Positions 3,511 to 50,162 of a stretch of 64,000 nucleotides of DNA are shown piece after piece. Where the stretch lies: positions 26,724,001 through 26,788,000 of the forward strand of contig CM075987.1 in the NCBI GenBank assembly GCA_038087875.1, read 5' to 3'. Source of the DNA: Malacoraja senta. Lineage: Eukaryota. The position numbers and the translations under genes were made by a program. Position 1 is the first letter of the stretch, and each line of letters starts with the position of its first letter. Below the pieces are notes generated by a model. It had not been told where the DNA came from and did no database searches. It was given only the letters and a program-made list of their open reading frames with translations.

Positions 3511-3610
3511 TGGGGACAATCAGCCATGATCACAATGAATGGCGGTGCTGGCTCGAAGGGTCGAATGGCCTCCTCCTGCACCTATTTTCTATGTTTCTAT
3601 GTTTCTATGT
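3511..3610 (+). mobile_element. CR1 LINE 3' UTR fragment
   Basis: CAGCCATGATC..TCGAAGGGTCGAATGGCC..(TATGTTTC)n tail, same as the 7921 element. Confidence 0.75.
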
Positions 3611-3613
3611 CCC

Positions 3614-3616
<3 letters not shown>

Positions 3617-3699
<83 letters not shown>
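3617..3699. repeat. (GT)n microsatellite inside a V-SINE 3' fragment
   Basis: Flanked by TGTCCCT and CGGATAG..GGGGATCGCAGGTC, the SINE context of the short GTGTGT motif. Confidence 0.9.
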
Positions 3700-3700
<1 letters not shown>

Positions 3701-4072
3701 GGATAGAGCTAGTGTAGGGGGGATCGCAGGTCAGCGCGGACTCAGTGGGCTGAAGGGCCTGTATCCCTCAAGAACCAATCTAAACTTTCCCAAGCATGGA
3801 GAGAGAAAAATACCCGAGTCAGACAGTTAATGATGGAGAAAAAAAAATCCAACAGGCTGGATCATGCAAACACAAATTACAACCCGTTTGCACTTTAACC
3901 CTGGGTAATGTTAGTCTGGAAGAAATAGGCACTGCAAAGCACATTAGTGGAATAAATAACCTTTAGATGAGCAGCCATGGTACACATTGTTTCTGCTTCT
4001 AATAGGGGTTACACAATAGAGCCAGGCAATGGAACATTAAGGCAAAAGATTCGGAACATCAACAAATCAGCT

Positions 4073-4413
4073 GTGTTTAAGAAGGAACTGCAGGTGCTGG
4101 AAAATCGAAGGTAGACAAAAATGCTGGAGAAACTCAGCGGGTGCAGCAGCATCTATGGAGCGAAGGAAATAGGCAACGTTTCAGGCCGAAACCCTTCAGG
4201 GTTTCGGCCCGAAACGTTGCCTATTTCCTTCAGGGTTTCAAACGTTGCCAAACCCTTCAGGGTTTCGACCCGAAACGTTGCCTATTTCCTTCAGGGTTTC
4301 AAACGTTGCCAAACCCTTCCGGGTTTTTTTCGGCCCAAAACGTTGCCTATTTCCTTCGCTCCATAGATGCTGCTGGGCCCGCTGAGTTTCTCCAGCATTT
4401 TTGTCTACCAGCA
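4073..4413. mobile_element. Penelope-derived fold-back element with central 61-bp tandem units
   Basis: Inverted arms (GGTAGACAAAAATGCTGGAG... / ...CTCCAGCATTTTTGTCTACC) match the 3' end of the PLE at 41901; TSD AAATCAGCT at 4064-4072 and 4414-4422. Confidence 0.8.
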
Positions 4414-4974
4414 AAATCAGCTTTGCTATTTTTGGTTGTTTGAAAACCACAAAACATTTACACAGCTAAAGTTTCATTAAAAATTTCTCGAGGCAATGCA
4501 AACGTGGTAGCCCGCTCCGGTTCCCAGTGTTTGAGAATTGGAATGGCACATAGAATTGGGGGAGGTTTGAAATTTAGGTTTACCATTTTGCAACGGAAGA
4601 TAGACACAGCAAGCTGTTGCAACCGATGCGTTCCAGGCCCCCGCCATTAATTGTGAAAATTCCTTGCCCTCAACATCTCCAGTAAACTCCAGCAAATCTC
4701 CCCTCAACCTCTGCTGTTCCTGAGAAAATAATCCAGTTCTATCCAACCTCTTTGGAGCTGAAGCCCTCTAATGCAGGCAGCATACTGATAAAGCTCGTCT
4801 AACCCCTCTCCAAAGTCTCCACATCCTCCCTGTATTAGAAACATAGAAAACAGGTGCAGGAGTAGGCCATTCGACCCTTCGAGCCGGCACCGCCATTCAA
4901 TAAGATCATGGCTGATCATCCACAATCAGTACCCCGTTCCTGCTTTCTCCCCATATCGCTTGATTCCGTTAGCC

Positions 4975-5281
4975 CCAAGAGCTCTCCCGAGTTAAAAAAA
5001 AATCAAACTCGTGGTAAGCACGGAGAATGAACGTAGCGGGTACGTCGGAGCTCGGGGACGTCTCTTAGCGGCTCGTAACGCTAACGGCAGGTACTCGGGA
5101 AGACTCGCTAATGGCATGTAAGCACGGGAAGACTCCTGAAGATTTTTTTTATCAACATGTTGAAAAATGTCCATGAGAGCCTCGAGTACCGACGAGCGCC
5201 CATTTCCGTAAATCTCCAAGTTTGAATCAGGGCAAACTCGGGAGAGCTCTTGGAATGAACTCGTACCGTGGGACAGGGCTA
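4975..5281. mobile_element. PIF/Harbinger-type MITE, left TIR truncated
   Basis: Same family as 11012, 16421 and 18449; right TIR ..GAACTCGTACCGTGGGACAGGGCTA. Confidence 0.8.
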
Positions 5282-6202
5282 TAACTCTCTAACAGGGCGA
5301 CCAGAACTGCAAGCAATATTCTCCAAAGTTTACAAATAAAGCGCAGTATAGACTTGGGTGGCTGTACAAAAAGCTATTGTAATCTTTGGAGGAAATAAAA
5401 TCACACCAAATTCAAGACAATGCTCCAATAAAATAAAACAGCGTGAGGCATTAAATATTAAACGTTGCTGAAGCCATGAAATAAGTGCAAGATATTTATC
5501 TACCTTTCCTTTGTTAGGTTTTGAATAAGAGCAATCATCCCTTTGAAATAAATATGTTAATATTGTACATCCATTAACTTAAAACAGCAGAAAACAGGGT
5601 ATTAAATAAATACATTTTAACTGTAATTCTATGGTTGAAAGTTGTAAATTATTCCATTAGCGGATTCCTATAATGTAGATAATCAGCATAAAAGTTCTTA
5701 TTCTGGGTAAATGGGATATTTTACTCTTATTATCACAGTGCGTGGAAAGAAGTCATTTGCACCATTGTGTTCATGCAATCTTTCAAAGTGCCAACCAATT
5801 AATTCTGTTCCCTTGTTTGCAAACCCGGAGACATGTTCATCCATGTAAAGTGTACTTAAAACATCAAAATCGTTTTTTTTGAATGGTTAAGATCCAAAGT
5901 CAACTGTGCATGCAGATAGAAGCATACACAAGCCAAACTACGCAGAGAAAGAAGAGGGCCTCGACCCAAAACGTCACCCGTTCCTTCTCTCCAGGGACGC
6001 TGCCTGTCCCGCTGAGTTACTCCAGCATTTTGTGTCTATCTTCAGACAAAGAAAAAAGCTGCATTCTAACGTTAACAACCCATCATCTGCTATCTATGTT
6101 GTTTTGTTTGTTTTACTCTCTCTCTCTCTCTTTCTCTCTCTGTCTCTCTGCTCATCCATGGAGACAGTAGACAATGCACCTTGTGTCAAGGCCTATTTAG
6201 AA

Positions 6203-6460
6203 GGTAGACAAAAGTGTTGGAGAAACTCAGCGGGTAACGGCCCGAAACTCAGGCAACGTTTCGGGCCGAAACCCTGAAGGGTTTGGCAACGTTTGAAACC
6301 CTGAAGGAAATAGGCAACGTTTCGGGCCAAAACCCTTCGGGTTTCGGCCCGAAACGTTGCCTATTTCCTTCGCTCCATAGATGCTGCTGCACCCGCTGAG
6401 TTTCTCCAGCACTTTTGTCTACCTACGATTTTCCAGCATCTGCAGTTCCTTCTTAAACAC
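6203..6460. mobile_element. Penelope-derived fold-back element, opposite orientation to the 4073 copy
   Basis: Inverted arms and the same internal unit; TSD AAGG(CC/TT)TATTTAGAA at 6188-6202 and 6461-6475. Confidence 0.8.
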
Positions 6461-6486
6461 AAGGTTTATTTAGAACCCGGGTGAAG

Positions 6487-6715
6487 AGCGCCAAGATGGC
6501 GCAGCGGTAAAGTTGCTGCCTTATAGCGCCAGAGACCCGGGTTCAATCCTGACTCCAGGCGCTGTCTATCTGTTGAAACCAAAGCTCCCGGAGAAAACCC
6601 ACGCAGGTCACGGGGAGAACGTACAAACTCCGTACAGACAGCACCCGTAGTCAGGATCGAACCCGGGTCTCTGGCGCTGTGAGGCAGCAACTCTACCGCT
6701 GCGCCACCCTGCCGC
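6487..6715. mobile_element. Two V-SINE 5' heads in inverted orientation
   Basis: + head at 6487-6570 (TGGCGCAGCGG..GGTTCAATCC) and - head at about 6585-6715. Confidence 0.8.
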
Positions 6716-7169
6716 TCCAAAACTTCAACAGGGAAATTCACTTAATTCATCCAAAGGAAAACAGACAGGACTTAAGCAAATCCGGGCACTTACACGCCTT
6801 CTGTAGTTCTAGATTACTGGTTACAGCAGATTTAAGCATACCGTTTATTTCCATTCTGGCCCTTGTCCACCATTCACACTCCAACCCAAAGATGGCAATC
6901 TCACCATCTGTAAAGGATCTTCTTTTATACACATGATCCAAACTTCCTGTCACCCGACAAGGCCGTCCTGTCACGTGAAAAACCATTGGAGAGAACCAGC
7001 TTTGATTAAACTTTAACACATTAATCAATACCATACTTGATTTTATTAAACAATGTGAGTTGCACACACAGACCACAATGTTTACATGCCCCAAGTGGAA
7101 TGTACAATATGTGTCGGAAGGAACTGCAGATGCCGGCTTACACCGAAGATAGACACAAAATGCTGGAGT

Positions 7170-7540
7170 AACGTTTCGCTGAACACCTTCGCTCAGTCCG
7201 CCTGGACCTAACGGATCTCCCGGTTGCCAAACACTTTAATTCCCCTTCCCATTCCCACACTGACCTTTCTGTCCTGGGCCTCCTCCATTGTCAGCGTGAG
7301 GCCCAGCGCAAATTGGAGGAACAGTGCCTCATATTTCGCTTGGGCAGCTCACACCCCAGCGGTATGGATATTGATTTCTCTAACTTCAAGTAGCCCCGGC
7401 ATTCCCTCTCTCTCCATCACCGCCCCTACTTTTTGGCATATCTTTCATTCATTTGTTCTATATCTCTCTGCATCTATATCTCTCATTTCCCTTTGCCCTG
7501 AGTAGTCTGAAGAAGGGTTCTCGACTGAAAACGTCGCCCA
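7170..7540 (+). mobile_element. Penelope-like 3' fragment (end of GIY-YIG region plus 3' repeat)
   Basis: Matches the endonuclease end of the 42113 ORF (TTGGAGGAACAG..CATATTTCGCTTGGGCAG) and ends in a degenerate CTGAAGAAGGG motif. Confidence 0.7.
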
Positions 7541-7589
7541 TGATTTTGTACACCTTTATAAGATGCTACTGCGCTCCAAGGAATAGTCA

Positions 7590-10345
7590 CACAATGCTGG
7601 AGTAACTCAGCGGGACAGGCAGCATCGCTGGAGAGAAGGAACGGGTGACGTTTCAGGTCGAGACATCTTCTTCAGACTGAGAGTTAAGGGAGGGGGAGGA
7701 GGAGACACAGAGATAAGGAAGCATAAGGTGTGAGAATGAGACATCAAACGGGGTGGAGATCAAGGAAGTCGTACAGATCATTGTTAGCTGGGAGAAGGTA
7801 ACAACAAAGCAAACAGAGAAAATATGTAATCAGGAAGTCAGACGGGTCGGAGGACTGGGAAGGGGAAGGGATGGAGAGAGAAGGAAAGCAAGGGTTACTT
7901 GAAATTAGAGGTCAATGTTCATAGAAACATAGAAACATAGAAAATAGGTGCAGGAGTAGGCCAGTCGGCCCTTCGAGCCTGCACCGCCATTCAATATGAT
8001 CATGGCTGATCATCCAACTCAGTATCCTGTACCTGCCTTCTCTCCATACCCCCTGATCCCTTTAGCCACAAGGGCCACATCTAACTCTCTCTTAAATATA
8101 GCCAATGAACTGGCCTCAACTACCCTCTGTGGCAGAGAATTCCAGAGATTCACCACTCTCTGTGTGAAAAATGTTTTTCTCATCTCCGTCCTAAAAGTTG
8201 TCCCCTTTATCCTTAAACTGTGACCCCTTGTTCTGGACTTCCCCAACATCGGGAACAAACTTCCTGCATCTAGCCTGTCCAACCCCTTAAGAATTTTGTA
8301 CGTTTCTGTAAGATCCCCCCTCAGTCTTCTAAATTCCAGCGAGTACAAGCCGAGTCTATCCAGTCTTTCCTCATATGAAAGTCCTGACATCCCAGGAATC
8401 AGTCTGGTGAACCTTCTCTGTACTCCCTCTATGGCAAGAATGTCCTTCCTCAGATTAGGAGACCAAAACTGTACGCAATACTCCAGTGTACCAAGACCCT
8501 GTACAACTGCAGTAGAACCTCCCTGCTCCTATACTCAAATCCTTTTGCTATGAATGCTAACATACCATTCGCTTTCTTCACTGCCTGCTGCACCTGCATG
8601 CCCACTTTCAATGACTGGTGTACCATGACACCCAGGTCTCGTTGCATCTCCCATTTTCCTAATCGGCCTTTATCCACATTTATCCACATTATACTGCATC
8701 TGCCATGCATTTGCCCACTCACCCAGCCTATCCAAGTCATCTTGCAGCCTCCTAGCACCCTCCTCACAGCTAACACTGCACCCCAGCTTTGTGTCATCCG
8801 CAAACTTGGAGATGTTGCATTCAATTCCCTCGTCCAGATCATTAATATATATTGTAAATAGCTGGGGTCCCAGCACTGAGCCTTGCGGTACCCCACTAGT
8901 CACTGCCTGCCATTCTGAAAAGGACCCGTTTACTCCTACTCTTTGCTTCCTGTCTGCCAGCCAGTTCTCTACCCATATCAATACTAAACCCCCAATGCCA
9001 TGTGCTTTAAGTTTGTATATTAATCTCTTATGTGGGACCTTGTCGAATGCCTTCTGAAAGTCCAGATATAACACATCCACTGGTTCTCCCTTATCCACTC
9101 TACTAGTTACATGCTCGAAAAATTCTATAAGATTCGTCAGACATGATTTACCTTTCGTAAATCCATGCTGACTTTGTCCAATGATTTCACCACTTTCCAA
9201 ATGTGCTGCTATCCCATCTTTAATAACTGACTCTAGCAGTTTCCCCACTACCGGTGTTAGACTAACTGGTCTGTAATTCCCCATTTTCTCTCTCCCTCCC
9301 TTTTTAAAAAGTGGGGTTACGTTAGCTACCCTCCAATCCTCAGGAACTACTCCAGAATCTAAAGAGTTTTGAAAGATTATCACTAATGCATTCACTATTT
9401 CTGGGGCCACTTCCTTAAGTACTCAGAGATGCAGCCTATCTGGCCCTGGGGATTTATCGACCATTAATCCATTCAATTTACCTAACACCACTTCCCGGCT
9501 AACCTGGATTTCCCTCAGTTTCTCCATATCATTTGACCCCCGGTCCCCCGCTATTTCCGGTAGATTAATTAAGTCTTCCTTAGTGAAGACAGAACCAAAG
9601 TAGTTATTCAATTAGTCTGCCATTTCCTTGTTCCCCATGATCAGTTCACCTGTTTCTAACTGCAAGGGACCTACATTTGTTTTAACTAATCTTTTTCTCT
9701 TGACATTTCTATAAAAACCTTTGCAGTCAGTCTCTATGTTCCCTGCCAATTTTCTTTCATACTCTATTTTCCCTTTCCTAATTAAACTCTTTGTCCTCCT
9801 CTGCTGGACTCTGAATTTCTCCTAGTCCTCCGGTAGGCTGCTTTTTCTGGCTAATTTGTACGCTTCATCTTTTGTTTTGATACTATCCCCGATTTCCCTT
9901 GTTATCCACGGATACACTACCTTCCCTGATTCATTCTTTTGCCAAACTGGGATGAGCAATTGTTGTAGTTCATCCATGCAGCCTTTAGATGCCTTCCATT
10001 GCATATCCACCGTCAACCCTTTAAGAATCAATTGCCAGTCTATCTTGGCCAATTCACGTCTCATACCCTCAAAGTTACCTTTCTTTAAGTTCAGAACCCT
10101 TGTTTCTGAATTAATTATGTCACTCTCCATCCTAATGAAGAACTCAACCATATTATGGTTCATACCACTGGGTGTGAGATGCCCAAGCGAAATATGAGAT
10201 GCTGTTCCTCCAATTTGCGCTGGGCCTCACTCTGACAATGGAGGAGGCCCTGGACAGAAAGGTCTGTGTGGGAATGGGAGGGGGAGTTAAAGTGTTTGGC
10301 AACCGGGAGATCAGGTAGGTTCAGGCGGGCTGAGCGGAGGTGTTC
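7590..10345 (-). mobile_element. Penelope-like 3' fragment split by a CR1 insertion (pieces 7590-7920 and 10157-10345)
   Basis: Sequence resumes across the CR1 at GTTCATA; ORF 10160..10450 has EHLRS..PVAKHFNSPSHS..KLEEQHLIFRLG. Confidence 0.7.
7921..10156 (-). mobile_element. 5'-truncated CR1 LINE, ORF2 reverse transcriptase remnant with frameshifts and stops
   Basis: ORFs 8670..9410 ([45 protein letters not shown]), 8019..8390, 9423..9611 and 9822..10163; (TATGTTTC)n tail; GTTCATA duplicated at both ends. Confidence 0.95.
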
Positions 10346-11011
10346 AGAGAAACTCCAGCATTTTGTGTCTATCTTCGGTGCAAACCAGCATCTGCATTTC
10401 CTTACGACACATATTGTACATATTGGAGGGGGAGTTAAAGTGTTTGGCAAACGGGTGATCAGGTAGGTTTAGGCGGACAGAGAGGAGGTGTATCCAAGGA
10501 ATAGAGTCCCCGCTTGCTCCCCCTCTTCCTTGTAGTCTAATCCCAGCTGACATGCGGCCCCTCAGCCTAATGCACTGAATGGAAGATGGACTGAGTAGAG
10601 GATTCTACTTGTGACACTTTTGTTTTGTTCTGTCTCCTCACTGTCAGGCTCTTCGCCGGACAGTACCATTCATCAGAGCGTGTGAGGAAGTGCATGCGAG
10701 ATCAATTGTAGTCTGGGCCTCCGTGGCATTCAGAAGAATTACAATCAGTTCCGCTCAAGCGGACAGCTGATAACTGACTGTCTCCCTGTGAAGACTACAA
10801 ATTGAAAACCTTCAACTATGTTCCGTCCATGCATTGTAAAATGTCTCCACTGTAATGGAGTAGGCCTTTATTTCCACTCTGACTGGCCCTTTGTCTATTC
10901 CATGTCAGTTTCATACCATCAAAATCAACTGCTCACTGATTTTTTCCCCACAGCTGAACCACTGCGTTGTACACGCATGCCTAAACTACTCTAGGATCAG
11001 CCTCCCTCTAA

Positions 11012-11331
11012 TAGCCCTGTCCCACAGTGCGAGTTCATTCCAAGAGCTCTCCCGAGTTTTTTTTTTAAATCACTCATGGTAAGCACGGAGAATGAACGTA
11101 GCGGGTACGTCGGAGCTCGGGGACATCTCTTAGCGCTAACGGCAGGTACTCAGGAAGACTCGCTAAAGGCAGGTAAGCACGGGAAGACTCGTGAAGATTT
11201 TTCAACATGATGAAAAATGTCCATGAGAGCCCCGAGTACCGACGAGCGGCCATTACCGTAAATCTCCAAGTTTGAATCAGGGCAAACTCGGGAGAGCTCT
11301 TGGAATGAACTCGTACTGTGGGACAGGGGTT
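11012..11331. mobile_element. PIF/Harbinger-type MITE
   Basis: About 45-bp TIRs (TAGCCCTGTCCCAC..AAGAGCTCTCCCGAGTTT); TAA/TGA flanks; non-coding. Confidence 0.85.
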
Positions 11332-11356
11332 TGAGAAAAACTAGATAACATTCTTA

Positions 11357-11667
11357 GGGCGGCACGGTGGCGCAGCGGTGGAGTTGCTGCCTCACAGCGC
11401 CAGAGACCCGGGTTCGATCCTGACTACCGGTGCCATCTGTACGGAGATTGTACGTTCTCCCTGTAACCCGCGTGGGTTTTCTCCGGGTACTCCTGTTTCC
11501 TCCCTCATTCCAAAGACCTACAAGTTTGTAGGTTAATTGGCTTGGTATAAATGTCTAGTTGTCCCTAGTGTGTGTAGGATAGTGTTAGTGCGCGGGGATC
11601 GCTGGTCGGCGCCGACTCGGTGGGCCAAAGGGCCTGTTTCCGTGATGTTTCTCTAAACTAAACTAAA
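11357..11667 (+). mobile_element. Full-length V-SINE (HE1-like)
   Basis: GGGCGGCACGGTGGCGCAGCGG head, B-box, central domain, (TAAAC)n tail. Confidence 0.9.
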
Positions 11668-12234
11668 ATTTAAATGGAAGCTGGCAGATTGATGGAACCA
11701 CAATGCTAAATCGCGAGGATTTTACAAACGGTAGAGTCAATGTGTGCAGAACAATATACAAACCAATCCTTTGAAAAATGCAATCTATTTCTAAAGAGTT
11801 TGAAGTAAGGTCCTGACCCAAAACATCACCCATCCACATAATCCAGAGATGCTGCCTGACCCACTGAGTTACTCCAGCACTTTGTGTCCTTTACTGTAAA
11901 CCAGCATCTGCAGTTCCTTGTTTCCTCAAAGAGTTCTTATTTTTTTGCTCTGTTCAAGTTAAATAAGAGAGATACTGTATCTTGACTAAACAGGAAGGTT
12001 GCAGATAGACACAAAGTGCTGGAGTAACTCAACGGATCGGGCAGTATCTCTGGAGAAAATGAATAGGTGACGTTTCTGGTCGAGACCCTTCTTCGGACCT
12101 CTGAAGGGAGTTCTTTGAAACACTCTCTCACTCTAAACCCTATCCATTTACTCCAGAGTTGCTGCCTGACCCGTTGGGTTATTCAAGCATTTGGTGTCTA
12201 TCTTCGGTGTAAACCAACATCAGAGTTCCTTGTT

Positions 12235-12545
12235 GGGCGGTGGGGCCTGGGCGATGATGGGAACCTCGCAGGTCGGTGGGAGCCTCGCGGGTCGTTGGGA
12301 GCCTTGATGAGGGTGTGGGGAACCTCAGTGAGGGGGGGAGGGAGAAGAACAATGGAGGACCCGGCGTGTGCGGACTGCCATGAGGGAGGGGGGGAGGAGA
12401 GAATAAAGGAGCAGCCGGCATGGGGGGTACTTTGTAACTTTGTCGCTGCCCTTTACATGGCCACTATTTGCATACCTTGGGTACGCAAGCAAAGAGTTTT
12501 CCTGTGACTTGTCACATGTGGCAATAAAGTGTTCCATTCCATTGT
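12235..12545 (+). mobile_element. GC-rich non-autonomous retroposon with Rex1-like tail
   Basis: Ends TGCATACCTTGGGTACGCA..CTGTGACTTGTCACATGTGGCAATAAA; related copies at 1700, 41365 and 63350. Confidence 0.55.
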
Positions 12546-12594
12546 TATTACAGGTAGGTTGGAGATCATGACACCTTATCTCTGGTGAGCATAT

Positions 12595-12798
12595 ACATTT
12601 ATAATCTTATCGAAGCCAATAAAACCTATAAACCTGTACGTCTTTCGAGTGTGGGAGGAAACCGGAGCACCCGGGGAAAACCCACGTGGGTCACGGGGAG
12701 AACGTACAAACTCCTTGCAGACAGCACCCATAGTCAGGATCGAACCTAGGTCTCTGCCGCTGTGAGGCAGTAACTCTACCATTGCGCCACCGTGCCCC
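12595..12798 (-). mobile_element. V-SINE 5' portion
   Basis: Reverse complement of the SINE head and central domain. Confidence 0.85.
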
Positions 12799-13043
12799 CT
12801 GACTTGAAATTGTCCTGATCTGACCATTCTGTAACTTCACACTTATCAATGCAATTGACCCTTAAGAACTTAAGTGCAATCCACTCAGGTAATTTGTTAA
12901 ATTTATTGTGCTTATTATTTAGATGAACACTAAATATCAGTCTTGCCAGTAAAATCTACATCCTGCAAATGCATGCTTTTTTTAAAGTGGAAATGTCATG
13001 ACTATTCAGGCAAAACTCTTGAGCACATATCTAGGCAAATACT

Positions 13044-13233
13044 AGGTACACAAAAATGCTGGAGAAACTCAGCGGGTGCAGCAGCATCTATGGAGCGAAG
13101 GAAATAGGCAACGTTTCGGGCCAAAACCCTTCTTCAGACTGATAGGGGTGGGGAGAAGAAAGGAAAAAAGGAAAAAGGCGGAGGAGGAGCCCGAGGGCTG
13201 GGGGAGGGGAGGAGACAACCAGAGGGCTGATGA
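13044..13233 (-). mobile_element. Short 5'-truncated Penelope-like 3' end
   Basis: Near-identical to 41901-42095; 11-bp TSD AGGCAAATACT at 13033-13043 and 13234-13244. Confidence 0.85.
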
Positions 13234-13500
13234 AGGCAAATACTGTTGTGGAAATCACATAATGTTGTGGAAATCTTCCCCTTGCTAGTGATGGCATTTT
13301 TGAAATAAGATCTTAAACTGTGCCTCTATCAACTTTCTAAAATAACCTGCAAACACATAGACAGACACAAAATGGAGAGGCAGCATCACTGGAGAGAAGG
13401 AATAGGTGACGTTTCGGGTCAAGACCCTCCTTCAGACTGAGAGTCAGAGGACAGGGAAACGTGAGTTATGGAAGGGTCAAGTGTGAAAACGAGAGATCAA

Positions 13501-13689
13501 AGCCAATTAAGCTACAAACCTGCACATCTTTGGAGTGTGGGAGGAAACCGAAGATCTCGGAGAAAACCCACGCAGGTCACGGGGAGAACGTACAAACAAG
13601 GCACAGACAGCGCCCATAGTCGGGATCAAACCCGGGTCTCTGGCGCTACGAGCGCTGTAAGGCAGCAACTCTACCGCTGTGCCACCGTG
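13501..13689 (-). mobile_element. V-SINE 5' portion nested in a PLE-derived fold-back
   Basis: Reverse SINE head between PLE arms at about 13360-13500 and 13715-13850. Confidence 0.75.
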
Positions 13690-14689
13690 ACAGACGCTTC
13701 TTCAGACACTTTGAAGTCTGAAGGGAGTTTGAAGAAAGACCCGAAACGTCACCCATTCCTTCACTCCAGAGATGCTGCCTGTCCCGCTGAGTTACTCCAG
13801 CATCTTGTGTCTATCTTCAGTGTAAACCAGCATCTGCGGTCCCTTCCTACACGTTCTAAAATCATATTTCAACGTAACATCGAATTTCTCTTGACAGTGC
13901 AGCCAAGAAATATATTTGTCTGAAAAGCCATCTTCATTCATAACTATCATTTGTAATTCTCAAGGTGTCGTCTGTGTTGTTGAGGATGCTACTTTGCACT
14001 TGACAGCCGCAGCTATGACAAGCACATACAGTAGATTGGAAAGTTAGAGTGGAAAGTACATTCAATTCTTAAAGGGTTATTATTCACACTGGCGGCCTTG
14101 AACATTAGGTCATGCTTGGCCACTCTGCAACATTCATCAGTATTATGTTTCACCATTAGCAATAGTTGGTTACCAAACTGCATGTGTTTGAAATTCCAGA
14201 TAAGATCCGTACTATTGTGGCGTAGGAAGGAACTGCAGATGCTGGTTTAAATCTAAGATAGACACAAAATGCTGGAGTAACTCAGCGGGACAGGCAGCTT
14301 CGGTGGAGTGAAGGGATGGGTGACGTTTCAGTTCGAGACCCCTCTTGACTCTTTATTTCATTAAAGAAAAAAAGAGTGCAGAGTTGCCGGTGACATGAGG
14401 ATCCCGAGTGTAAAATCATTTTAATAAACAAATGAACTGCTGAAATTAAAGGGGAAAAAAAATCAATGCTTTGTAAGACGGGACAGGCAGCATCTCTGGA
14501 GAGAAGGAATGGGTGACGTTTCAGGTCGAGACCCTTCTTCAGACTGAGAGTCAGGGGAAAGGGAAAAGAGAGATATAGACGGTGATATAGATTGATATAG
14601 AACAAATGAATGAAAGATATTATATGTAAAAAAAGTAACGCTGATAAAGGAAGGTGATTGTTAGCTGTGGGCTAGGTGAAGGCCAGGCT

Positions 14690-15215
14690 GCATTTAGAGT
14701 CTGGACACCATGTTGTAGAAAATATGTTGTCAAGGGTACAGAGAAGATTTACAAGGATGTTGCCAGGACTAGAGGGCCTAAGATGTAGGGAGAGGTTGAG
14801 CAGGCTGGGACTGTATTCCTTGGAGCGCAGGAGGATGAGGGGTGATCTTATAGAGGTGTATAGAACCATGAAAGGAATGGATCGGGTAGATGCACAGAGT
14901 CTCTTGCCCAGAGTAGGTGAATCGAGGTCCAGAGGACATAGGTTCAAGGTGAAGGAGGAAAGATTTAATAGGAACCCGAGGGGAAACTTTTTCACACAAA
15001 GGGTGGTGGGTGTATGGAACGAGCTGCCAGAGGAGGTAGTTGAGGCTGGGACTATCCCAACATATAGGATAAAGTGAGACAGGTACATGGATAGGACAGG
15101 TTTGGAGGGATATGGGCCAAACGCGGGAAGGTGGGACTAGTGTAGCTGGGACATGTTGGCTGGTGTTGGCAAGTTGGGCCGAAGGGCCTGTTTCCACCAT
15201 GCATCACTCTATGAC
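14690..15215 (+). mobile_element. CR1 LINE 3' end (HER1-like; tail shared with V-SINE), nested in a PLE remnant at about 14478-15372
   Basis: ORF 14676..15077 (RVQRRFTRMLPGL..LGLYSLERRRMRGDLIEVY..TQRVVGVWNELP); 3' end GGGCCGAAGGGCCTGTTTCC. Confidence 0.9.
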
Positions 15216-16420
15216 CCCAAGACTCTAAAATGAGTTACAGACAATGAAACTCACCAGGACGACATTGAAACTCGTCCAACGACCAGAGGTTGGGGAGGGA
15301 CAGAGATAGAGTGGGGATGCAAGGATTACTTGAAGTTTGAGAAATCAATATTCATACCACTGGGTTGTAAGTAATATCTCATCTTCATTTCTCTTAACCA
15401 TCATTCACAACTGTCCCTGTGATTGCCTCGTGAGAAATTAATGTTTCAGCTTAAAAGCCATTTTCCCAAAGGCTTTTTTCTTGCGTTGTCTGCTTCACGA
15501 TCCTTCTTTTATAAAGAACACATGAAGGAAGCTGGTATCTGCAGATGATATTATTTATATATTACTTAAATGTTATTCATTTAGTCTTGAATCATTCAAC
15601 CAAATTATTATGCCAAACTTCCAACATCAAACAGGAAATGTTGCATTTGTAGTCTTTTTATATTAAATTTAATGGAATGAAGAATCACATCAATCTAAAA
15701 TGGCCACCAGGAGTTATCAGAAGTAATAACAAACTTTTAATTAATTATGCTGTGCCCCAATTCTATAAAATAATGTTGATAGTCACCGGAGGTGATGTTG
15801 CAATGACTAGGCTTCATTAGAAGTAAATTAGAATGTGGAAGCATCAAGGAACAGCATGAGAGCCTTCATTAAAATGCCTCGAACACCACTGCTGACCATC
15901 AGTAAAACTTGCACAAAGAACCTCAGCTTTTCCTTGATGAATACGCCTGGCAATTATTTTTCGCAAAATCTTTCATCGTTCTTTGAGATGCAAACGTCTA
16001 GAAATGAAGCTGTGTAGGAAGGGAGGAACTGCAGATGCTGGTTTAAACCGAAGGTAGACACAAAATGCTGGAGCAACTCAACTCAGCGGGACAGGCAGCA
16101 TCTCTGGGGAGAAGGAATAGGTGACGTCTCGGGTCGAGACCAGAGTCTGAAGAAGGGTCTCGACCCCGAACGTCATTCATTCCTTCTCTCCAGAGATGCT
16201 GCCTGCCCCGCTGAGTTACTCCAGCTTCAAGGTCCTTCATGCCAGCTTTTCCTCATTTTCTATCTGTTAGGCAGGAGCGTTTTGCCAGCATCTTCAAGTA
16301 ATTACTCATACCTTACAAATGATTCTGCGCTTTGTACAGGTAGTTTGAAGTTTAGCAAACAGTACAGCTCATGCATGTGTGACTTACACAGTTGAGAATA
16401 GACCCAAACTGCTGAAGTTA

Positions 16421-20634: not shown

Positions 20635-21267
20635 TAACAAGAGGAATCGAATATAGGAGCAAAGAGGTCCTTCTGCAGTTGTACAGAGCCCTAGTGAGAT
20701 AACACCTGGAGTATTGTGTGCAGTTTTGGTCCCCTAATTTGAGGAGAGACATTCTTGCTATTGAGGGAGTGCAGCGTAGGTTTACAAGGTTAATTCCCGG
20801 GATGGCAGGACTGTCATATGCTGAGAGAATGGAGCAGCTGGGCTTGTACACTCTGGAGTTTAGAAGGATGAGAGGGTATCCCATTGAAACATATAAGATT
20901 GTTAAGGGTTTGAACACGCTAGAGGCAGGAAACATGTTCCCGATGTTGGGGGAGTCCAGAACCAGGGGCCACCGTTTAAGAATAAGGAGTAAGCCATTTA
21001 GAACGGAGACGAGGAAACACTTTTTCTCACAGAGAGTGGTGAGTCTGTGGAATTCTCTGCCTCAGAGGGCGGTGGAGGCCGGTTCTCTGGATGCTTTCAA
21101 GAGAGAGCTAGATAGGGCTCTTAAAAATAGCGGAGTCAGGGGATATGGGGAGAAGGCAGGAACGGGGTACTGATTGGGGATGATCAGCCATGATCACATT
21201 GAATGACGGTGCTGGCTCGAAGGGCCGAATGGCCTACACCTGCACCTATTGTCTATTGTCTATTGTC
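20635..21267 (+). mobile_element. CR1 LINE 3' end, (TATTGTC)n tail subfamily
   Basis: ORF 20718..21173 (QFWSPNLRRDILAIEGVQRRFTRLIPG..SQRVVSLWNSLP). Confidence 0.92.
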
Positions 21268-27654: not shown

Positions 27655-27918
27655 GGACTGCCTAAGAAAGAACTGCAGATGCTGGAAAAATCGAAGGTAG
27701 ACAAAAATGCTGGAGAAACTCAGCGGGTGAGGCAGCTGTCTCCGCCTCTTCCTTTCTTCCCCCCCCCCCCCCCCCGCCGACATCAGTCTGAAGAAGGGTC
27801 TCAACCCGAAACGTCACCCATTCCTTCTCTCCAGAGATGCTGTCTGACCCGCCGAGTTACTCCAGCAATTTTTGTCTATCTTCGGTGTAAACCGACATCT
27901 GTAGTTCCTTCCTACACT
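27655..27918. mobile_element. PLE-derived fold-back with hammerhead core at 27788-27815 (+)
   Basis: Inverted PLE-end arms; CTGAAGAAGGGTCTCAACCCGAAACGTC. Confidence 0.7.
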
Positions 27919-28180
27919 GATGCCCTAGTGCTGGAAGTCATTGCCTGCGCACACAGAGTACTTGAAACATTCTTCACACATAGCGGGTAGCTGATTGTAT
28001 TTTACACAATCCAGTGCGTTGCTTACAAAGCATGGCCCTAAAGGACAGGGCTCCTCTGCGTCTCAATCTCTTTGTATTTGCCTTTAATCTTCACAAAATG
28101 AAATGGTCCTTTTCCTTTGCTCAGTCCCCGGCACAGAATATGCAGCAAATATGTTTTTTTAAATCATATCATAACCTCTT

Positions 28181-28540
28181 GTGTTTAAAGAAGAACTGCA
28201 GATGCTGGAAAAATCAAAGGTAGACAAAAATGCTGGAGAAACTCAGCGGGTGAGGCAGCATCTATGGAGCGAAGGAAATAGGCAACGTTTCGGGCCGAAA
28301 CCCGAGGGTTTCGGCCCAAAACGTTGCCTATTTCCTAACCCTAACCCTAACCCAAGGGTTTCTGCCCAAAACGTTGCCTGTTTCCTAACCCTAACCCTAA
28401 CCCAAGGGTTTCTGCCCAAAACGTTGCCTATTTCCTAACCCTAACCCTAACCCAAGGGTTTCGGCCCAAAACGTTGCCTATTTCCTTCGCTCCATAGATG
28501 CTGCCTCACCCGCTGAGTTTCTCCAGCATTTTCGTCTACC
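28181..28540. mobile_element. PLE-derived fold-back with three 50-bp units containing (CCCTAA)n
   Basis: Inverted arms; the unit TTTCCTAACCCTAACCCTAACCCAAGGGTTTC..AAAACGTTGCCT starts at 28331, 28381 and 28431. Confidence 0.8.
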
Positions 28541-29474
28541 ACAGCTAACAACAGCCTGTTTCCTTCATCATCATTACCTTTTTTGCATATCTTTCATTCA
28601 TTGTTCTATGTCTCTCGTTTCCCTTTCCCCTGACTCTCCGTCTGAAGAGGGGTCTCGACCCGAAACTTCACCTATTCCTTCTCTCCTGAGAAGCCCTCTG
28701 ACCCGCTGGGTTACTCCAGCGTTTTGTGTCTATCAACTGAAATTATGAACTTTGTACGTGGCTTCCAGATATTTCAAGACGGATTGTCTTTGATCATTGT
28801 ATGTGGCTGTGTTGACTTGACACTCTTTTAGGAATGCAGATAAATGGGAGAAGCAATGTGTTTTCTCCATTGCAATGGTATAATGACACTGTACAAGCAA
28901 GGATCTGGCTATGTATTTCATTCCAGATTTACAATCTCACCTTCATAACCTCTTAAATGTGGTACCAATTGCACCGTACCATGAGTGAATTTCTAGTGGA
29001 TTACTGCTAAACTGAGCTGTAAGTTGCACTTGTGGTAACGCATGTCAAACGTCTAACAATTATTTGAGGTTCCATCGCAAGATTGCAAAGTGTTCAGATT
29101 GGTACTGGTCCATGTAAACCAACACTTGTCGGCACATACATGTAGCCTTAACCTACACCGTGAAATGCCACCCTACTACTTACATCATCTCATCGAGCTT
29201 CAAGCTGACAGTTCAGTGTAAAAGCAGCTGTTCTGAACCCTAAATACTTTATAATTATTTTATTTATGTAATTCTTTATTTCGAACAGAAAAAAAGAATA
29301 AAAAGCAAGTGTGAAACAGCATTCAAAAAAACAAAACAAGAATATTTATAAAGTGTCATAAACAATATCTGTAAATAAATGAAATCGTATGTGTCCGAAA
29401 AGGAGCAGGAAGAAGCCAAAGCTTATTAATTCCCACCCCTTATTCAACCGCTTATAATTATCTTATACAAATTT

Positions 29475-29550
29475 AGCAGCTACATGTACACCATATGTAC
29501 ACCAGCAGCTATATGTACACCATATGTACACCAGCAGCTATATGTACACC
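29475..29550. repeat. 29-bp minisatellite (about 2.6 copies) in an AT-rich stretch
   Basis: AGCAGCTA(C/T)ATGTACACCATATGTACACC at 29475 and 29504, partial third copy at 29533. Confidence 0.85.
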
Positions 29551-29984
29551 AAATTATTTACATTTATACACTAATCAAATATTTACAAAGCCATACAAAA
29601 AAAAGAGAGAAAAAAATAAAAAATAAAATAAAAATAAAAAACTTTGTTCAAAAGGACAAAGGTTACTGTAGTGGGAATGTGATTTGCAAACGCACACCTC
29701 CAGATTCAGGGACAGTTTCTTCCCAGCTGTTATCAGGCAACTGAACCATCCTACCACAACCAGAGAGCAGTGCTGAACTACTATCTACCTCATTGGTGAC
29801 CCTTGAACCCATCCCTTCGCTCCATAGATGCTGCCTCGCCCGCTGAGTTTCTCCAGCATTTTCGTCAACCTTCGATTTTTCCAGTATCTGCAGTTCTGTC
29901 TTAAACACTTTCAGTTCCTCCCCAATCTACTTTCAGTCTGAAAAAGGGTTCCGACCCAAAACGTCACCCATCCATTTTCCCCAG

Positions 29985-37112: not shown

Positions 37113-37125
37113 AAACATAAAAAAG

Positions 37126-37302
37126 CTCAGGTAGACAAAAATGCTGGAGAAACTCAGCGGGTGAGGCAGCATCTATGGAGAGAAGGAATAGGCGACGTTT
37201 CGGGTCACCTATTCCTTCTCTCCATAGATGCTGCCTCACCCGCTGAGTTTCTCCAGCATTTTAGTCTACCTTCAATTTTTCCAGCATCAGCAGTTCTTTC
37301 TT
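37126..37302. mobile_element. PLE-derived fold-back element
   Basis: Inverted arms centred near 37200; AAACATAAAAAAG duplicated at 37113-37125 and 37303-37315. Confidence 0.78.
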
Positions 37303-37956
37303 AAACATAAAAAAGTCCAGTGTGTATATATACATACTGTACACGCACGCACACACAGATGCACACACACACACACATATATATCTATACTGAGTCTGAA
37401 GAAGGGTCTCGACACAAAATGTCACCCATTCCTTCTCTCCAGAGATGCCAGCCAGTCATTAGCAGAGGCAACCTACAACTGGTGGATTGCATTATTCTAT
37501 AAATGTCATCTGTAACTTACACTGCCAATTTACAATCTTCTCTAGACAGGGACAATTAAAATCGGCATTGTATTTTCAATTCAAATGTTACAAAAACGAT
37601 TTGTGAATGTAATTATGCAAACATATTTATTTTATTAATTTAATCAAAGTCTGTCCCTATAGATAGGTTTATTCATTTTATTTCTGTTTGCTTTGATTCC
37701 TTTCACTGTGAAATCCTTACATGAGGAATTCCTTCAACACCATGGGTTCAATTAGTAACAGATGCCACAAACGTCTCATCTTTGTGACTGGCTGAAAAGG
37801 CATTTGTGTAAACCATCCACTGACGAGCAATTCTTTCGCTCCAGTACGAGACCTGATATGTTACCTCGTTATTCAAACTGCACTTTGCCACTCCACTGCA
37901 TCGCCCCAGGTGCAGGGAATGCAACAGGCAAACGCAGTGGGATCGTTCAGGCTAAA

Positions 37957-39622: not shown

Positions 39623-40782
39623 TAATAATAATAATAAGAAGAAGAATATCTTTTATTGTCATTGCACGTCAGTGCAACGAGATTTAGTATGCAGCTCCAC
39701 CAATGTACAAGAAAAGTTAAATAAATAAGCAAGCAAGCTGAGTGACGTGACCATCCGAGGGAGACTGTCCAGGGGGGGTGGGTGGGGGGGCACTCAGCAG
39801 GGCCGGTTCAGAGCCGCTATAGCTCTTGGAATAAAGCTGTTTCTGAGTCTGGAGGTTCGGGCGTAGAAGGCCTTGTAACGTCTGCCGGAGGGAAGTAGTT
39901 CAAACAGTCCGTTACAAGGGTGTGATGAGTCCTTATGGATGCTGACGGCCTTCCTGAGGCACCGCGTGTGGTAGATGCCCTCCAAGGCTGGTAGCTCTGT
40001 CCCAATGATCCTCTGCGCTCTGTGGACGACGCGCTGAAGAGCTCTCCTCTCCGCCTCCGTGCAGCTGAGATACCACACAGAGATGCCATACGTTAATATG
40101 CTCTCTGTGGTACAGCGGTAGAACGTTGTCAGCAGCTGTTGGGGCAGACCGGTCTTTTTTAATGTCCTCGGGAAGAACAGTCGTTGCTGTGCCTTCTTGA
40201 CCAGCGCAGCGGTGTTGGTGGACCATGTGAGGTCCTCTGAAATGTGAGTGCCCAGAAACTTAAAGCTGGACACTCTCTCCACACTTTCCCCGTAAATGGA
40301 GATTGGGGCGTATTCTCCATTATGGGACCTCCTGAAGTCAATAATCAGCTCCTTGGTCTTGGAGGTGGTTTAATGACAAGTTGTTATGAGCGCACCAGTC
40401 CGCCAGGTTCTGCACCTCCGCTCTGTATTTTGTTTCATCACCGTTGGTGATCAGCCCAATCACTGTTGTGTCGTCTGCAAACTTCACGATGGTGTTGGTG
40501 TCGAATGCAGGGACACAGTCGTGAGTGAAGAGGGAGTAGAGCATGGGGCTTAGTACACAGCCCTGTGGTGTGCCGGTGCTCAGGGTGATAGTGGAGGACA
40601 GGTGCGGGCCAGTCTCACTGCCTGCGGTCGCTCCGTCAGAAAGTTCAGGATCCAATCGCATATCGGCGAGCTGAGGCCTAGCTGGTGGAGTTTGGTGGTG
40701 AGCTTGGTGGGGATGACCGTATTGAATGCAGAGCTATAGTCAATGAAGAGCATCCTCACATACGTGCCCTGTCTGTCCAGGT
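39623..40782 (-). mobile_element. Rex1/Babar non-LTR retrotransposon 3' fragment (RT, frameshifted)
   Basis: VRMLFIDYSSAFNTVIP, GTPQGCVLSPMLYSLFTHDC, KFADDTT, FKFLGTHISEDLTW..KKAQQRLFF, LLPSGRRY; (TTC/TTA)n tail. Confidence 0.92.
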
Positions 40783-40990: not shown

Positions 40991-41965
40991 CTTTTCCTGT
41001 TTACTTGTCTACAGATTATTCTTGTATTCCCTTTTGTTTATTTCCAATCTTTTCTCATGCTCTGACTTTACCTCTTGTATTTACTTTTAATTTCCTCTTT
41101 GAAGTCCCCGTGATGAGTTCAGTGTTCCCTCGGGTTAATCTGTCATCATTCATAGTTCATTTTCTTTCCGGCTCTGTATTCCTTCCTCTATTTTTAATTT
41201 AGTCTGGCTTTAAGCCGTCTATACCACTCCCTTAAGGGACAGTTACTGTAATATTTCCACCTTCATTCAATCGTAGCTTTGCCAAACAATGTGTTGCATT
41301 TACCCAGAGTCATAGAGTGATCCAGCATGGAAACAGGCCCTTCGGTCCAACTTGCCAAGAAAGAATACTTTATTCTCTCATGTTGCAAGTCACAGTCAAA
41401 TTCTTTGCTTGCATAGCCAAGGTATACAAAGAGTCACCACCTAAAGGGCACTGCCAAAGTTACAAAGTACCCGTGTCGGGTCCTGCTTTGATCCACCCCC
41501 CCCCCACTGACGGCGGTCCCACCGCACCAAGTCCACGTGTACCGGTGATCACTGGTCGGCGCTGACTGGGTGGGCCGAAGGGCCTGTTTCCACGCTGTAT
41601 CTCTAAACTAAACTTGCAACTTATGTTGAGAAGGCTGGAAGACTAGAAATATAGCTTATGAATCTTTGTATGGATTATTATTTCAACACTAGAATTATAG
41701 ATCCACTTAAAGCTAATACTAAATCGTTGCTTTGATAGGTAGGCTATTAAATGATGTTCAGTTTCTTGGTAATAGTAGTTACTCAGAGTAAGTAAGTTGT
41801 CCTCAGCCCAGGTTGTTATCAGCCCGACAGTACAACAATGTACTATAGTTTATTCTTCCACAAATTTGTCCTCAATCAGTCTGTAAAGGATAGACTCAAA
41901 GGTACACAAAAATGTTGGAGAAATTCAGCGGGTGCAGCAGCATCTATGGAGCGAAGGAAATAGGC

Positions 41966-41993
41966 AACGTTTCGGGCCGAAACCCTTCTTCAG
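41966..41993 (-). ncRNA. Putative minimal hammerhead ribozyme core in the PLE 3' end
   Basis: Sense to the ORFs: CUGAAGA-A-GGGU(UUCG)GCCC-GAAA-CG-UU. Confidence 0.65.
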
Positions 41994-42112
41994 ACTGATA
42001 GGGGGTGGGGAGAAGAAAGGAAAAAAGGAAAAAAAGGCGGAGGAGGAGCCCGAGGGCTGGGGGATGGGAGGAGACAACCAGAGGGCTGATGAAGGGGAGG
42101 GGACAGCAAGGG

Positions 42113-42673
42113 CTAGCAGAGTTGGGAGAATTCAATGTTCATGCCCCCAGGATGTAGACTGCCCAAGCGGAATATGAGGTGCATTTCCTCCAATTTCCGG
42201 TGTTGCTCGCTGTGGCCATGGAGGAGACCCAGGACAGAGAGGTCAGATACGGAATGGGAGGGGGAATTGAAGTGCTGAGCCACCGGGAGGTCAGGTTGGT
42301 TATTGCGGACCGACCGGAGGTGTTCGGCGAAACGATCGCCAAGCCTCCGCTTGGTCTCACCGATGTAGATCAGCTGACATCTAGAGCAGCGGATGCAATA
42401 GATGAGGTTGGAGGAGATGCAGGTGAACCTCTGTCGCACCCTGAACGACTGCTTGGGTCCTTGAATGGAGTCGAGGGGGGAGGTGAAGGGACAAGTGTTG
42501 CATCTCTTGCGGTTGCAAGGTAAAGTACCCGGGGAGGGGGTGGTATGGGAGGGAAGGGAAGAATTGACAAGGGAGTTGCGGAGGGAGTTGCGGAAGGCAG
42601 ACATGGGGGGAGATGGGAAGATGTGGCGAGTGGTGGGGTCACGTTGGAGGTGGCGAAACTGTCGGAGGATCAC
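42113..42673 (-). pseudogene. Penelope GIY-YIG endonuclease remnant
   Basis: CNRKRCNTC linker, FTCISSNLIYCIRCSRC..YIGETKRRLGDRFAEH. Confidence 0.9.
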
Positions 42674-42711
42674 TTGTTGTATGTGACAGCTGGTGGGGTG
42701 AAAGGTGAGGA

Positions 42712-43233
42712 CTAGGGGGACTCTGCCCTTGTTGTGAGTGGGGGATGGGGAGAGAGAGCAGTGTTGCGGGGTATGGCAGAGACCCTGGTGCGAGCCTCAT
42801 CTATGGTGGAGGAGGGGAACCCCTGTTCCCTGAAGAATGAGGACATTTCGGATGCCCTGGTGTGGAACGCCTCATCCTGGGAGTCCTTACAGGAAGCAGG
42901 GTGGGAAGAAGTGTAGTCCAGATAGCCATGGGAGTCGGTAGGTTTGTAATGGATGTCGGTAAGAAGTCTATCACCTGCGATGGAGATAGTGAGGTCAAGG
43001 AATGGTAGGGAAGTGTCGGAAATGGTCCAGGTGTATTTGAATGCCGGATGGAAGTTGGTGGTGAAGCGGATGAAGTCAGTCAGTTGTGTGTGGGTGCAGG
43101 AGGTGGCACCAAAACAGTCATCGATGTAGCGGAGGTAGAGGTCGGGGATGGGGCCCTGGTACGCATTGAACAAGGATTGTTCTACGTACCCGACAAAGAG
43201 GCAGGCGTAGCTGGGGCCCATGCGTGTGCCCAT
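42712..43233 (-). pseudogene. Penelope reverse transcriptase remnant
   Basis: MGTRMGPSYACLFVG, YLRYIDDCFG, LPFLDLTI, YKPTDSHGYL; 5'-truncated and out of frame with the EN. Confidence 0.9.
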
Positions 43234-43496
43234 AGCTACGCCTTGTATTTGGAGGAAATGGGAGGAGTCAAATGAGAAGTTATTGAGGATAAGGACCAGC
43301 TCCGCTAGGCGGAGGAAGGTGTCAGTGGCTGGGTATACGTTGCTTCTCTGGTCGAGGAAAAACCGGAGGGCTCAAAAAAGGATAGACTCAAAATACTGGA
43401 GATGATGCTCTTTTATTCTGGACCCTCGTGCGGGAAAAAAAAGCAGAGCATTTACCCTGTCTAGTCCGTTAAGTATCTTAGTCATTTTAATAGTTT

Positions 43497-48752: not shown

Positions 48753-49176
48753 ACTAACTCCATGCATTGTGTTCTTTCTGGCTTTTCATATCAACTAATA
48801 ACAGTTCAGTTCAGTTTAGTTTATTGTCACGTACACCGAGGTACAGTAAAAAGTTTTTGTTGCGTGCTAACCAGTCAGCAGAAAGACGACACATTATAAT
48901 TGAGCCATCCACAGTGTACAGCTATGTGATACAGGGAATAAAATCCAATAAAGTGCAAAATAAAAATGAGTAAAGTCCGATCAAAGATAGTTTGAGGGTC
49001 TCCAATAAGGTCGCCTCCTTTTGCTCTGGTAGTTTATTTAATTCACATGTTTAATCAATAATGTTTTATTATTAATGTTTAATGTTTTATGTGTCATTCC
49101 TAACTGTCACTGTATGTCATGTTGTCACTTGCGGGCAGAGCACCAAGGCAAATTCATTGTATGTGAATACTTGGCC

Positions 49177-50162
49177 AATAAATGATTTGGACGAGGGAAT
49201 AGAATGCAACATCTCCAAGTTTGCGGATGACACGAAGCTGGGGAGCAGTGTTAGCTGTGAGGAGGGTGCTAGGAGGCTGCAAGATGACTTGGATAGGCTG
49301 GGTGAGTGGGCAAATGCATGGGAGATGCAGTATAATGTGGATAAATGTGAGGTTATCCACTTTGGTGGCAAAAACAGGAAAGTAGACTATTACCTGAATG
49401 GTGGCCGATTAGGAAAAGGGGAGATGCAACGAGACCTGGGTGTCATGGTACACCAGTCATTGAAAGTGGGCATGCAGGTGCAGCAGGCAGTGAAGAAAGC
49501 GAATGGTATGTTAGCATTCATAGCAAGAGGATTGAGTATAGGAGCAGGGAGGTTCTACTGCAGTTGTACAGGGTCTTGGTGAGACCACACCTGGAGTATT
49601 GCGTACAGTTTTGGTCTCCTAATCTGAGGAAGGACATTCTTGCCATAGAGGGAGTACAGAGAAGGTTCGCCAGACTGATTCCTGGGATGTCAGGACTTTC
49701 ATATGAGGAAAGACTGGATAGACTCGGCTTGTACTCGCTAGAATTTAGAAAATTGAGGGGGGATCTTATAGAAACTTACAAAATTCTTAAGGGGTTGGAC
49801 AGGCTAGATGCAGGAAGATTGTTCCCGATGTTGGGGAAGTCCAGAACAAGGGGTCACAGTTTAAGGATAAAGGGGAAATCTATTAGGACTGAGATGAGAA
49901 AAACTTTTTTACACAGAGAGTGGTGAATCTCTGGAACTCTCTGCTACAGAGGGTAGTTGAGGCCAGTTCATTGGCTATATTTAAGAGGGAGTTAGATGTG
50001 GCCCTTGTGGCTAAAGGGATCAGGGGGTATGGAGAGAAGGCAGGTACAGGATACTGAGTTGGATAATCAGCCATGATCATATTGAATGGCGGTGCAGGCT
50101 CGAAGGGCCGAATGGCCTACTCCTACTCCTGCACCTATTTTCTATGTTTCTATGTTTCTATA
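49177..50162 (+). mobile_element. 5'-truncated CR1 LINE (RT C-terminal half), same subfamily as 7921-10156
   Basis: [34 protein letters not shown]; (TATGTTTC)n tail; inserted at the AATAAA of a Rex1-like tail. Confidence 0.93.

Follow-up and report, generated by a model that had tools for sequence, protein, structure and literature searches.

Within a 64-kb stretch of skate DNA (64,000 nt in full, hereafter the window), two inverted copies of a Penelope-like element (PLE) end enclose short telomeric repeats. The question raised by this locus is whether these repeats reflect a regular link between the element and telomeres or a single accident of end joining. A preliminary description, made from the sequence alone, had proposed template switching between PLE RNA and telomeric sequence or telomerase RNA, or telomerase healing of an integration intermediate, and saw in this a possible route to interstitial telomeric sequences (ITSs). 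As detailed below, the locus is real but minor: an insertion of a known inverted PLE type, whose joint contains a very short telomere-type filler that was amplified threefold (Table 1).

Table 1. Features of the fold-back, its surroundings and the sister copy; positions are those of the window.
Feature	Position	Strand	Description	Basis
Left flank	27918..28180	.	single-copy; orthologous contigs in three related genomes	
Long arm	28181..28303	-	inverted copy of pLTR 3' region, including 38-nt tail 28181-28218	BLAST to other copies, tail length
Unit 1	28304..28353	+	30-nt hammerhead half + 20-nt telomeric run 28334-28353	
Unit 2	28354..28403	+	like unit 1; telomeric run 28384-28403	
Unit 3	28404..28453	+	telomeric run 28434-28453; G>T change in common with unit 2	
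Short arm	28454..28540	+	sense pLTR 3' region without tail; end GTCTACC as in other short arms	
Truncated older pLTR	28541..28736	+	5'-truncated, from an older hammerhead-bearing pLTR family; adjoins short arm	BLAST
Broken ORF-bearing sister copy	41900..43371	-	same subfamily, 5'-truncated; RT part, linker Cys motif, GIY-YIG, intact CTGAAGA core	

The element and the anatomy of its insertion

The identity of the element was read from a sister copy whose open reading frame (ORF), comprising the RT part and the GIY-YIG domain, is frameshifted. The GIY-YIG domain of this ORF (42.1-43.4 kb) was matched by Pfam with E=2e-4 and 21.9 bits, below the cut-off of 22.6; the top matches of the ORF in the Atlas were to GIY-YIG clusters at 0.96-0.97, and the Cys and His residues of the CCHH motif are invariant in the alignment. 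For the RT part, Pfam yielded no match and the PDB 0 sequence matches; its RT motifs were assigned by eye. Species-named matches to the protein (7 of 68) all came from skates, rays or sharks, the closest being from Leucoraja erinacea, with a local identity of 88% over 43% of the query, which points to a skate as host. The linker between RT and endonuclease (EN) carries C-x4-C-x2-C, with the CxxC invariant in all six aligned sequences. With an RT followed by a C-terminal GIY-YIG with CCHH, an inverted 5'-truncated pLTR and a 38-nt tail at one end, the element is, judged by its sequence, an EN+ PLE. The linker motif suggests the Neptune/Nematis type; according to Craig et al. (10.1101/2021.04.23.441226), that clade has an additional Zn-finger motif between RT and EN.

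The hammerhead core is intact in the young-subfamily copies at 41900-43371 (-) and 13044-13265 (-). After merging, 61 pLTR-like matches of at least 40 nt were counted in the 64 kb (29 sense, 32 antisense), and these belong to at least two hammerhead-bearing subfamilies. Rfam returned 0 matches at gathering score for the whole window, the minimal hammerheads of its pLTRs included. Further features are an RVT_1 Pfam match at 8673-9422 within a retroelement fragment (8019-9422), an ALKBH8_N Pfam match at 39797-40369 within another (39794-40733), and the fragments 14676-15077, 20703-21173 and 49076-49926, which by eye resemble the same LINE types. At 29475-29551, a 29-bp tandem repeat (2.7 copies, 97% matches) with short palindromic pieces lies in AT-rich DNA.

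The reading of the locus as a Penelope-like fold-back holds: the inverted arms (28219-28310 and 28449-28540) are 96% complementary over 92 nt, and the combination of a tailed long arm and a tailless short arm matches the known inverted-pLTR anatomy, an inverted 5'-truncated pLTR with a tail of 30-40 bp being standard in PLEs (10.1101/2021.04.23.441226, PMC3846280). Read on the plus strand, the long arm is antisense to the element RNA and hence of cDNA polarity, with its terminus in hammerhead stem II; an arm matching it also follows the GIY-YIG ORF at 41.9-42.8 kb. The short arm has cDNA polarity on the minus strand, with the G-rich telomeric strand 3' of its end, and its outer end corresponds to the start of the tail in the long arm. 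We infer that each arm is a cDNA, that the two were primed from opposite sides, and that they met at hammerhead stem II. The arms differ from each other at only 1 of 65 positions, fewer than the divergence of the flank suggests, so that either the arms have been homogenised or the age of the insertion has to be left open. No target-site duplication (TSD) was found at the 28181-28540 fold-back, the longest word common to both flanks being 5 nt, and its ends were therefore not made or not kept cleanly. PLE copies without a TSD are known (PMC3846280).

The 50-bp array and its position at a common jump point

A tandem array with a period of 50 bp (28299-28486, 3.8 copies, 96% matches) was detected by TRF at the joint of the arms. 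The centre of the head-to-head insertion consists of three 50-bp units (28304-28453), each of which ends in the same perfect telomeric run of 20 nt, CCTAACCCTAACCCTAACCC, and a fourth, partial copy extends into the right arm. Both the three units with their tracts and the start of the tract 8 nt after the GTT, with an overlap of CCT, are as the preliminary description stated. Apart from the three tracts, the 64-kb window contains no run of two or more telomeric hexamers; for a 20-nt run, the chance expectation is 7e-7 per window under a mononucleotide null, which ignores the element's own hexamer AACCCT. Each tract amounts to ~3.3 hexamers, and part of this may be element sequence, namely CCT at one end and AACCC at the other; the net sequence not attributable to the junction comes to just some 12 nt. 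In minus-strand orientation, the short-arm cDNA runs ...GAAACCCTT, followed by GGGTTAGGGTTAGGGTTAG and after that by GAAATAGG.

The remainder of each unit is the hammerhead half already described, which in unit 1 comprises stem II, a mutated GAAA, the GTT site and the 3' strand of stem I; unit 2 departs from it by two substitutions: G>T, in the loop region of stem II, and A>G, which lies downstream of GTT. The CTGAnGA hammerhead core is absent from both strands of 28251-28520, and all units have AAAA in place of GAAA. Since the core is missing and GAAA is altered, the units are neither ribozymes nor retrozymes, and an active ribozyme array was rejected. Insertion into an existing telomeric array was rejected as well, the tract lying between element pieces and not in the flanks.

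All four element halves carry CCCAAAACG, against CCCGAAACG retained in the long arm; units 2 and 3 have one further change in common, and unit 2 has an additional private one. Because of this shared difference and the nested changes, the simplest history is that the three tracts are not independent and go back to one filler event followed by tandem triplication, which agrees with the unit amplification envisaged at the outset.

The same layout of a tailed long arm and a tailless short arm is present at 4072-4409, 6201-6461 and 37120-37307, each of these sister fold-backs having an imperfect TSD of 13-15 bp. The centres at 4.2 kb and 6.3 kb are patchworks of element pieces of 8-34 nt in both orientations and include a jump from AAACCCT back to GAAGGAAATAGG. 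In this family, snap-back and microhomology jumps connect the fold-back ends; a frequent one leads from ...AAACCC back to (G)AAGGAAATAGG and duplicates about 32 nt. Contigs from relatives contain the jump without telomeric filler in at least four rows (4 of the 12 listed), at a depth of 250-467; it leads back from 28303 or 28302 to 28271-28272, and 1-6 filler letters lie in between. The telomeric tract thus occupies a jump point that is used elsewhere without telomeric DNA, and its spacing relative to the GUU site is coincidental. The link to the predicted GUU cleavage site, which the first reading had implied, is accordingly given up: at 4.2 kb, at 6.3 kb and in the relatives the same point is used with no telomeric DNA.

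The fold-backs at 4072-4409 (+) and 6201-6461 (-) lie 1.8 kb apart and have different TSDs, and their multi-junction centres are identical at 68 of 69 nt and have the same orientation relative to the long arm. This suggests that fold-backs can transpose as non-autonomous units with a heritable centre, that the jumps are very reproducible, or that gene conversion has taken place. As a contrast case, the fold-back at 37120-37307 (13-bp imperfect TSD) has a clean centre of the deletion type without filler. Over 1,000 distinct left-arm/right-arm joints, many of them with short filler, are found in the relatives' contigs.

Origin of the telomeric filler

The reading that we favour, at a probability of roughly 0.5, is one insertion, one filler made by telomerase on a snapped-back cDNA end, and a tandem triplication. 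The RT/endonuclease of the element would prime two cDNAs from opposite target strands, the long arm from the tail end and the short arm from an internal start 38 nt upstream, and both would stop at hammerhead stem II, so that two 3' ends faced each other. Through a snap-back, the short-arm cDNA would then acquire GGGTT as its end; these 5 nt match the register of the vertebrate telomeric repeat and would serve as a primer, to which telomerase would add about 14 nt. Through AG/AGG the extended end would anneal to the usual re-entry site, where synthesis would resume. The direct repeats of 32 nt around the single tract would finally expand, through slippage or an unequal exchange, into the three units of 50 bp, and the product would be a functionless scar, i.e., a very short ITS inside a retroelement junction. 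Cleavage and extension of both strands by a PLE protein, with RT starts at two sites that delimit the tail, are reported in PMC11167929; self-priming on an antisense template is given as an alternative for PLE palindromes in PMC3846280.

In favour of telomerase, the G-rich strand lies 3' of sequence with cDNA polarity, and the run is perfect in all three units. Vertebrate telomerase releases in a register at which the array run can end, AG/AGG microhomology blurring that end. Since the G-rich strand follows a cDNA 3' end and a 5-nt primer would stand in register after a snap-back, telomerase healing is the slightly better single explanation, and to this extent the original proposal is sustained. 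In-register microhomology at a break's 3' end marks short ITS insertions (PMC2246262, PMC7215372). The proposal loses its exclusiveness with the observation that the whole tract also parses into element words, namely AACCCT, AACCCT and AACCC on the plus strand and GGGTT, AGGGTT and AGGGTT on the minus strand. Without a snap-back, moreover, the cDNA end CCCTT followed by GGG is one base out of register, and the in-register GGGTT primer exists only if the snap-back formed first. The absence of a TSD counts against this account too, and a second locus with telomeric filler is missing from the window.

These element words lead to the main competing account, a serious one that we nevertheless consider the less probable: local templated synthesis without telomerase. 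Either a polymerase-theta-like SD-MMEJ or the element RT together with one untemplated A would have copied AACCCT/AGGGTT two to three times, or, in a variant, a joint of GGGTT and AGGAAATAGG would have given GGGTTAGG, which was expanded by two 6-bp slips; the telomeric look would then be a coincidence of the stem II sequence. Every base of the tract can be accounted for in this way, and nothing but element pieces makes up the patchwork centres of the 4.2 and 6.3 kb fold-backs. Snap-back of a cDNA end is known for R2 insertions (PMC11371274), and SD-MMEJ uses hairpins at most 30 nt from the break (PMC5728401). In the array, however, each AGGGTT restart would take place without templated microhomology, and the other 13 head-to-head pairs of the window contain, by eye and in this small sample, no evident non-telomeric filler of short period.

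How often local copying might spell a telomeric run was simulated for iterative copying without telomerase, a rough model in which step sizes and look-back windows are assumptions. The first simulation gave 77, 2, 4, 0, 2, 3, 0, 0 and 0 telomeric runs of at least 18 nt per 150,000 trials in nine settings, and roughly 1,000-29,000 perfect non-telomeric tandem runs of period 4-8 per 150,000. The second gave 357, 182, 65, 16, 0, 0 and 4 telomeric runs per 400,000, with about even polarities. Overall, the rate without telomerase was 0 to 9 per 10,000 fillers. The highest value, about 9e-4 per filler, was obtained with a short look-back and no microhomology, and in a family as abundant as this one (61 merged matches per 64 kb) a few such runs per genome would be expected. 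When 1 nt of microhomology was required, however, the rate fell to 0 to 5 per 150,000-400,000, and with 2 nt it was 0 per 150,000 in three settings. Two of the results tell against telomerase: with polarity near 50:50 under simulated slippage, one locus provides only twofold support, and the simulated rate (up to 357/400,000) overlaps the upper-bound frequency in the relatives (about 1 in 3,400-15,700). Slippage of the element's own AAACCCT motif, named in the preliminary description as a deflating explanation, keeps an appreciable probability in view of the element words and the simulations. The odds that we give to telomerase, and the lower ones to local copying, are a matter of judgement.

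That the element RT or a repair polymerase jumped to a telomeric template located elsewhere, be it telomeric DNA, telomerase RNA or C-rich telomeric RNA, and returned from it appears improbable. Extra-template capture of U6 RNA at R2 5' junctions (PMC11371274) and telomerase-RNA fragments at rodent ITSs (PMC2246262) offer precedents, but the tract comes without any accompanying non-repeat foreign sequence, and two jumps would be needed for about 12-14 new bases. One pass over the telomerase template is shorter than the array run. The earlier suggestion of telomerase RNA copying finds no support, since the tract lacks RNA sequence from outside the template and exceeds a single pass in length.

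Frequency of the joint in the window and in relatives

Among the 14 head-to-head pairs of the window, some of which are chance neighbours and not true fold-backs, a telomeric run longer than 7 nt occurs in one; the other 13 have at most 7 nt. In the contig sets of three relatives, the single-copy left flank was recovered at a depth of 11-20 and an identity of 92-96%. In organisms A and E, the orthologous flank contig extends by 35-40 nt into long-arm sequence, so that the insertion appears to be older than the splits from both; in organism B, the alignment of the flank contig ends at 28185, with 68 nt unaligned. At 28445, the depth in the relatives was 137, 73 and 99, compared to 0.46-1.6 million in the bin left of the array, and the element/tract depth ratios were about 3,400, 10,900 and 15,700. 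These ratios are a rough upper bound on frequency, as summed contig depth is not copy number, differently joined tracts are possibly clipped, and some differences and loose ends were dropped. With this roughness, they argue against a frequent process and are compatible with telomerase and local copying alike. The idea of a general route to interstitial telomeres thus finds no backing, given one pair in 14 and a tract depth far below that of the element.

The depth at 28445 is 6-7 times that of the single-contig flank, which might speak for a 50-bp unit inherited from a source fold-back that transposed non-autonomously, the filler having arisen elsewhere and sibling copies existing. The common patchwork (68/69 nt) of the 4.2 and 6.3 kb fold-backs, with their different TSDs, would also fit. 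The same depth can, however, be explained by a collapsed three-unit orthologous array plus stray alignments, contig depth not being copy number, and the origin of the first filler would stay unexplained, so that we regard this history as very improbable. Least probable of all is an assembly artefact or collapsed sequence. Among the 23 sequencing runs listed, 20 contain part of the stretch and none at least half of its words (best 0.23). Four of the 23 were aligned to it, of which the raw-read run X21 yielded just 6 reads and was uninformative, and no contig among those listed spans the array. Yet the units bear nested private substitutions, contigs of the orthologous flank continue into the long arm in two of the relatives, and each of the three contig runs covers the tract bin 28368-28403, if only at a small depth (48, 64, 91). 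The junction 22-mer was found 0 times in metagenome contigs and the family 18-mer 0 times in viral contigs; 25 metagenome loci with the family 18-mer, none of which had a BLAST match to the window at 1e-6, were treated as chance.

Comparison with known systems and meaning

With EN+ PLEs (10.1101/2021.04.23.441226, PMC3846280, PMC11167929), the locus has in common the head-to-head pLTR arms, a 38-nt tail on one arm, the pLTR hammerhead motif and, in the sister copy, the C-terminal GIY-YIG. It differs in having only two arms, a centre of three 50-bp units with telomeric filler, and no TSD. Short ITSs at double-strand breaks (PMC2246262, PMC7215372) resemble it in the short perfect TTAGGG run at the junction, the in-register 3' bases that a snap-back would supply, and the flanking duplication. 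The skate tract, however, has only about three hexamers (the survey query in PMC2246262 was four), its break is a retroelement joint at which local sequence can template the run, and it is known without an empty ortholog.

The EN-deficient PLEs Athena and Coprina likewise carry reverse-complement telomeric repeats beside a hammerhead motif on the sense strand; by the account of Craig et al. (10.1101/2021.04.23.441226), these repeats are heritable and serve attachment to chromosome ends in elements without an endonuclease. The skate family, in contrast, has a GIY-YIG, and its ordinary copies lack a telomeric repeat. Attachment of this type was rejected, 13 of 14 pairs having at most 7 telomeric nt and no other two-hexamer run being present. 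Non-LTR retrozymes (10.64898/2026.07.22.740005) are similar in their tandem PLE-derived units with hammerhead sequence, the shortest family consensus being 51 bp. They require that two or more consecutive units each carry a complete type I hammerhead, whereas no skate unit contains a complete hammerhead, and this assignment was rejected too. SD-MMEJ and snap-back insertions (PMC5728401, PMC11371274) comparably contain short pieces, both direct and inverted, copied from sequence at most 30-50 nt away from the junction; the skate pieces differ in spelling a perfect telomeric run. In the titles and abstracts searched, mostly outside subscription papers, no report of telomeric filler at EN+ PLE joints was found.

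The array is most likely one rare repair scar with no regular link between element and telomere; taken by itself, it amounts to a single old scar at a junction. That skate telomerase repeatedly captures free cDNA ends of an endonuclease-bearing PLE, snap-back at stem II exposing the GGGTT primer, is doubtful. If true, the PLE would carry within itself a seed for short interstitial telomeres, and its fold-back joints a natural assay of germline telomerase at retrotransposition intermediates. Should many joints with telomeric filler have one polarity in common, this would be direct evidence of germline telomerase on retrotransposon cDNA ends and of a sequence-encoded source of short ITSs. The very many skate fold-back centres also constitute a large natural record of how inverted PLE ends are joined, a step that stands unvalidated in PMC11167929.
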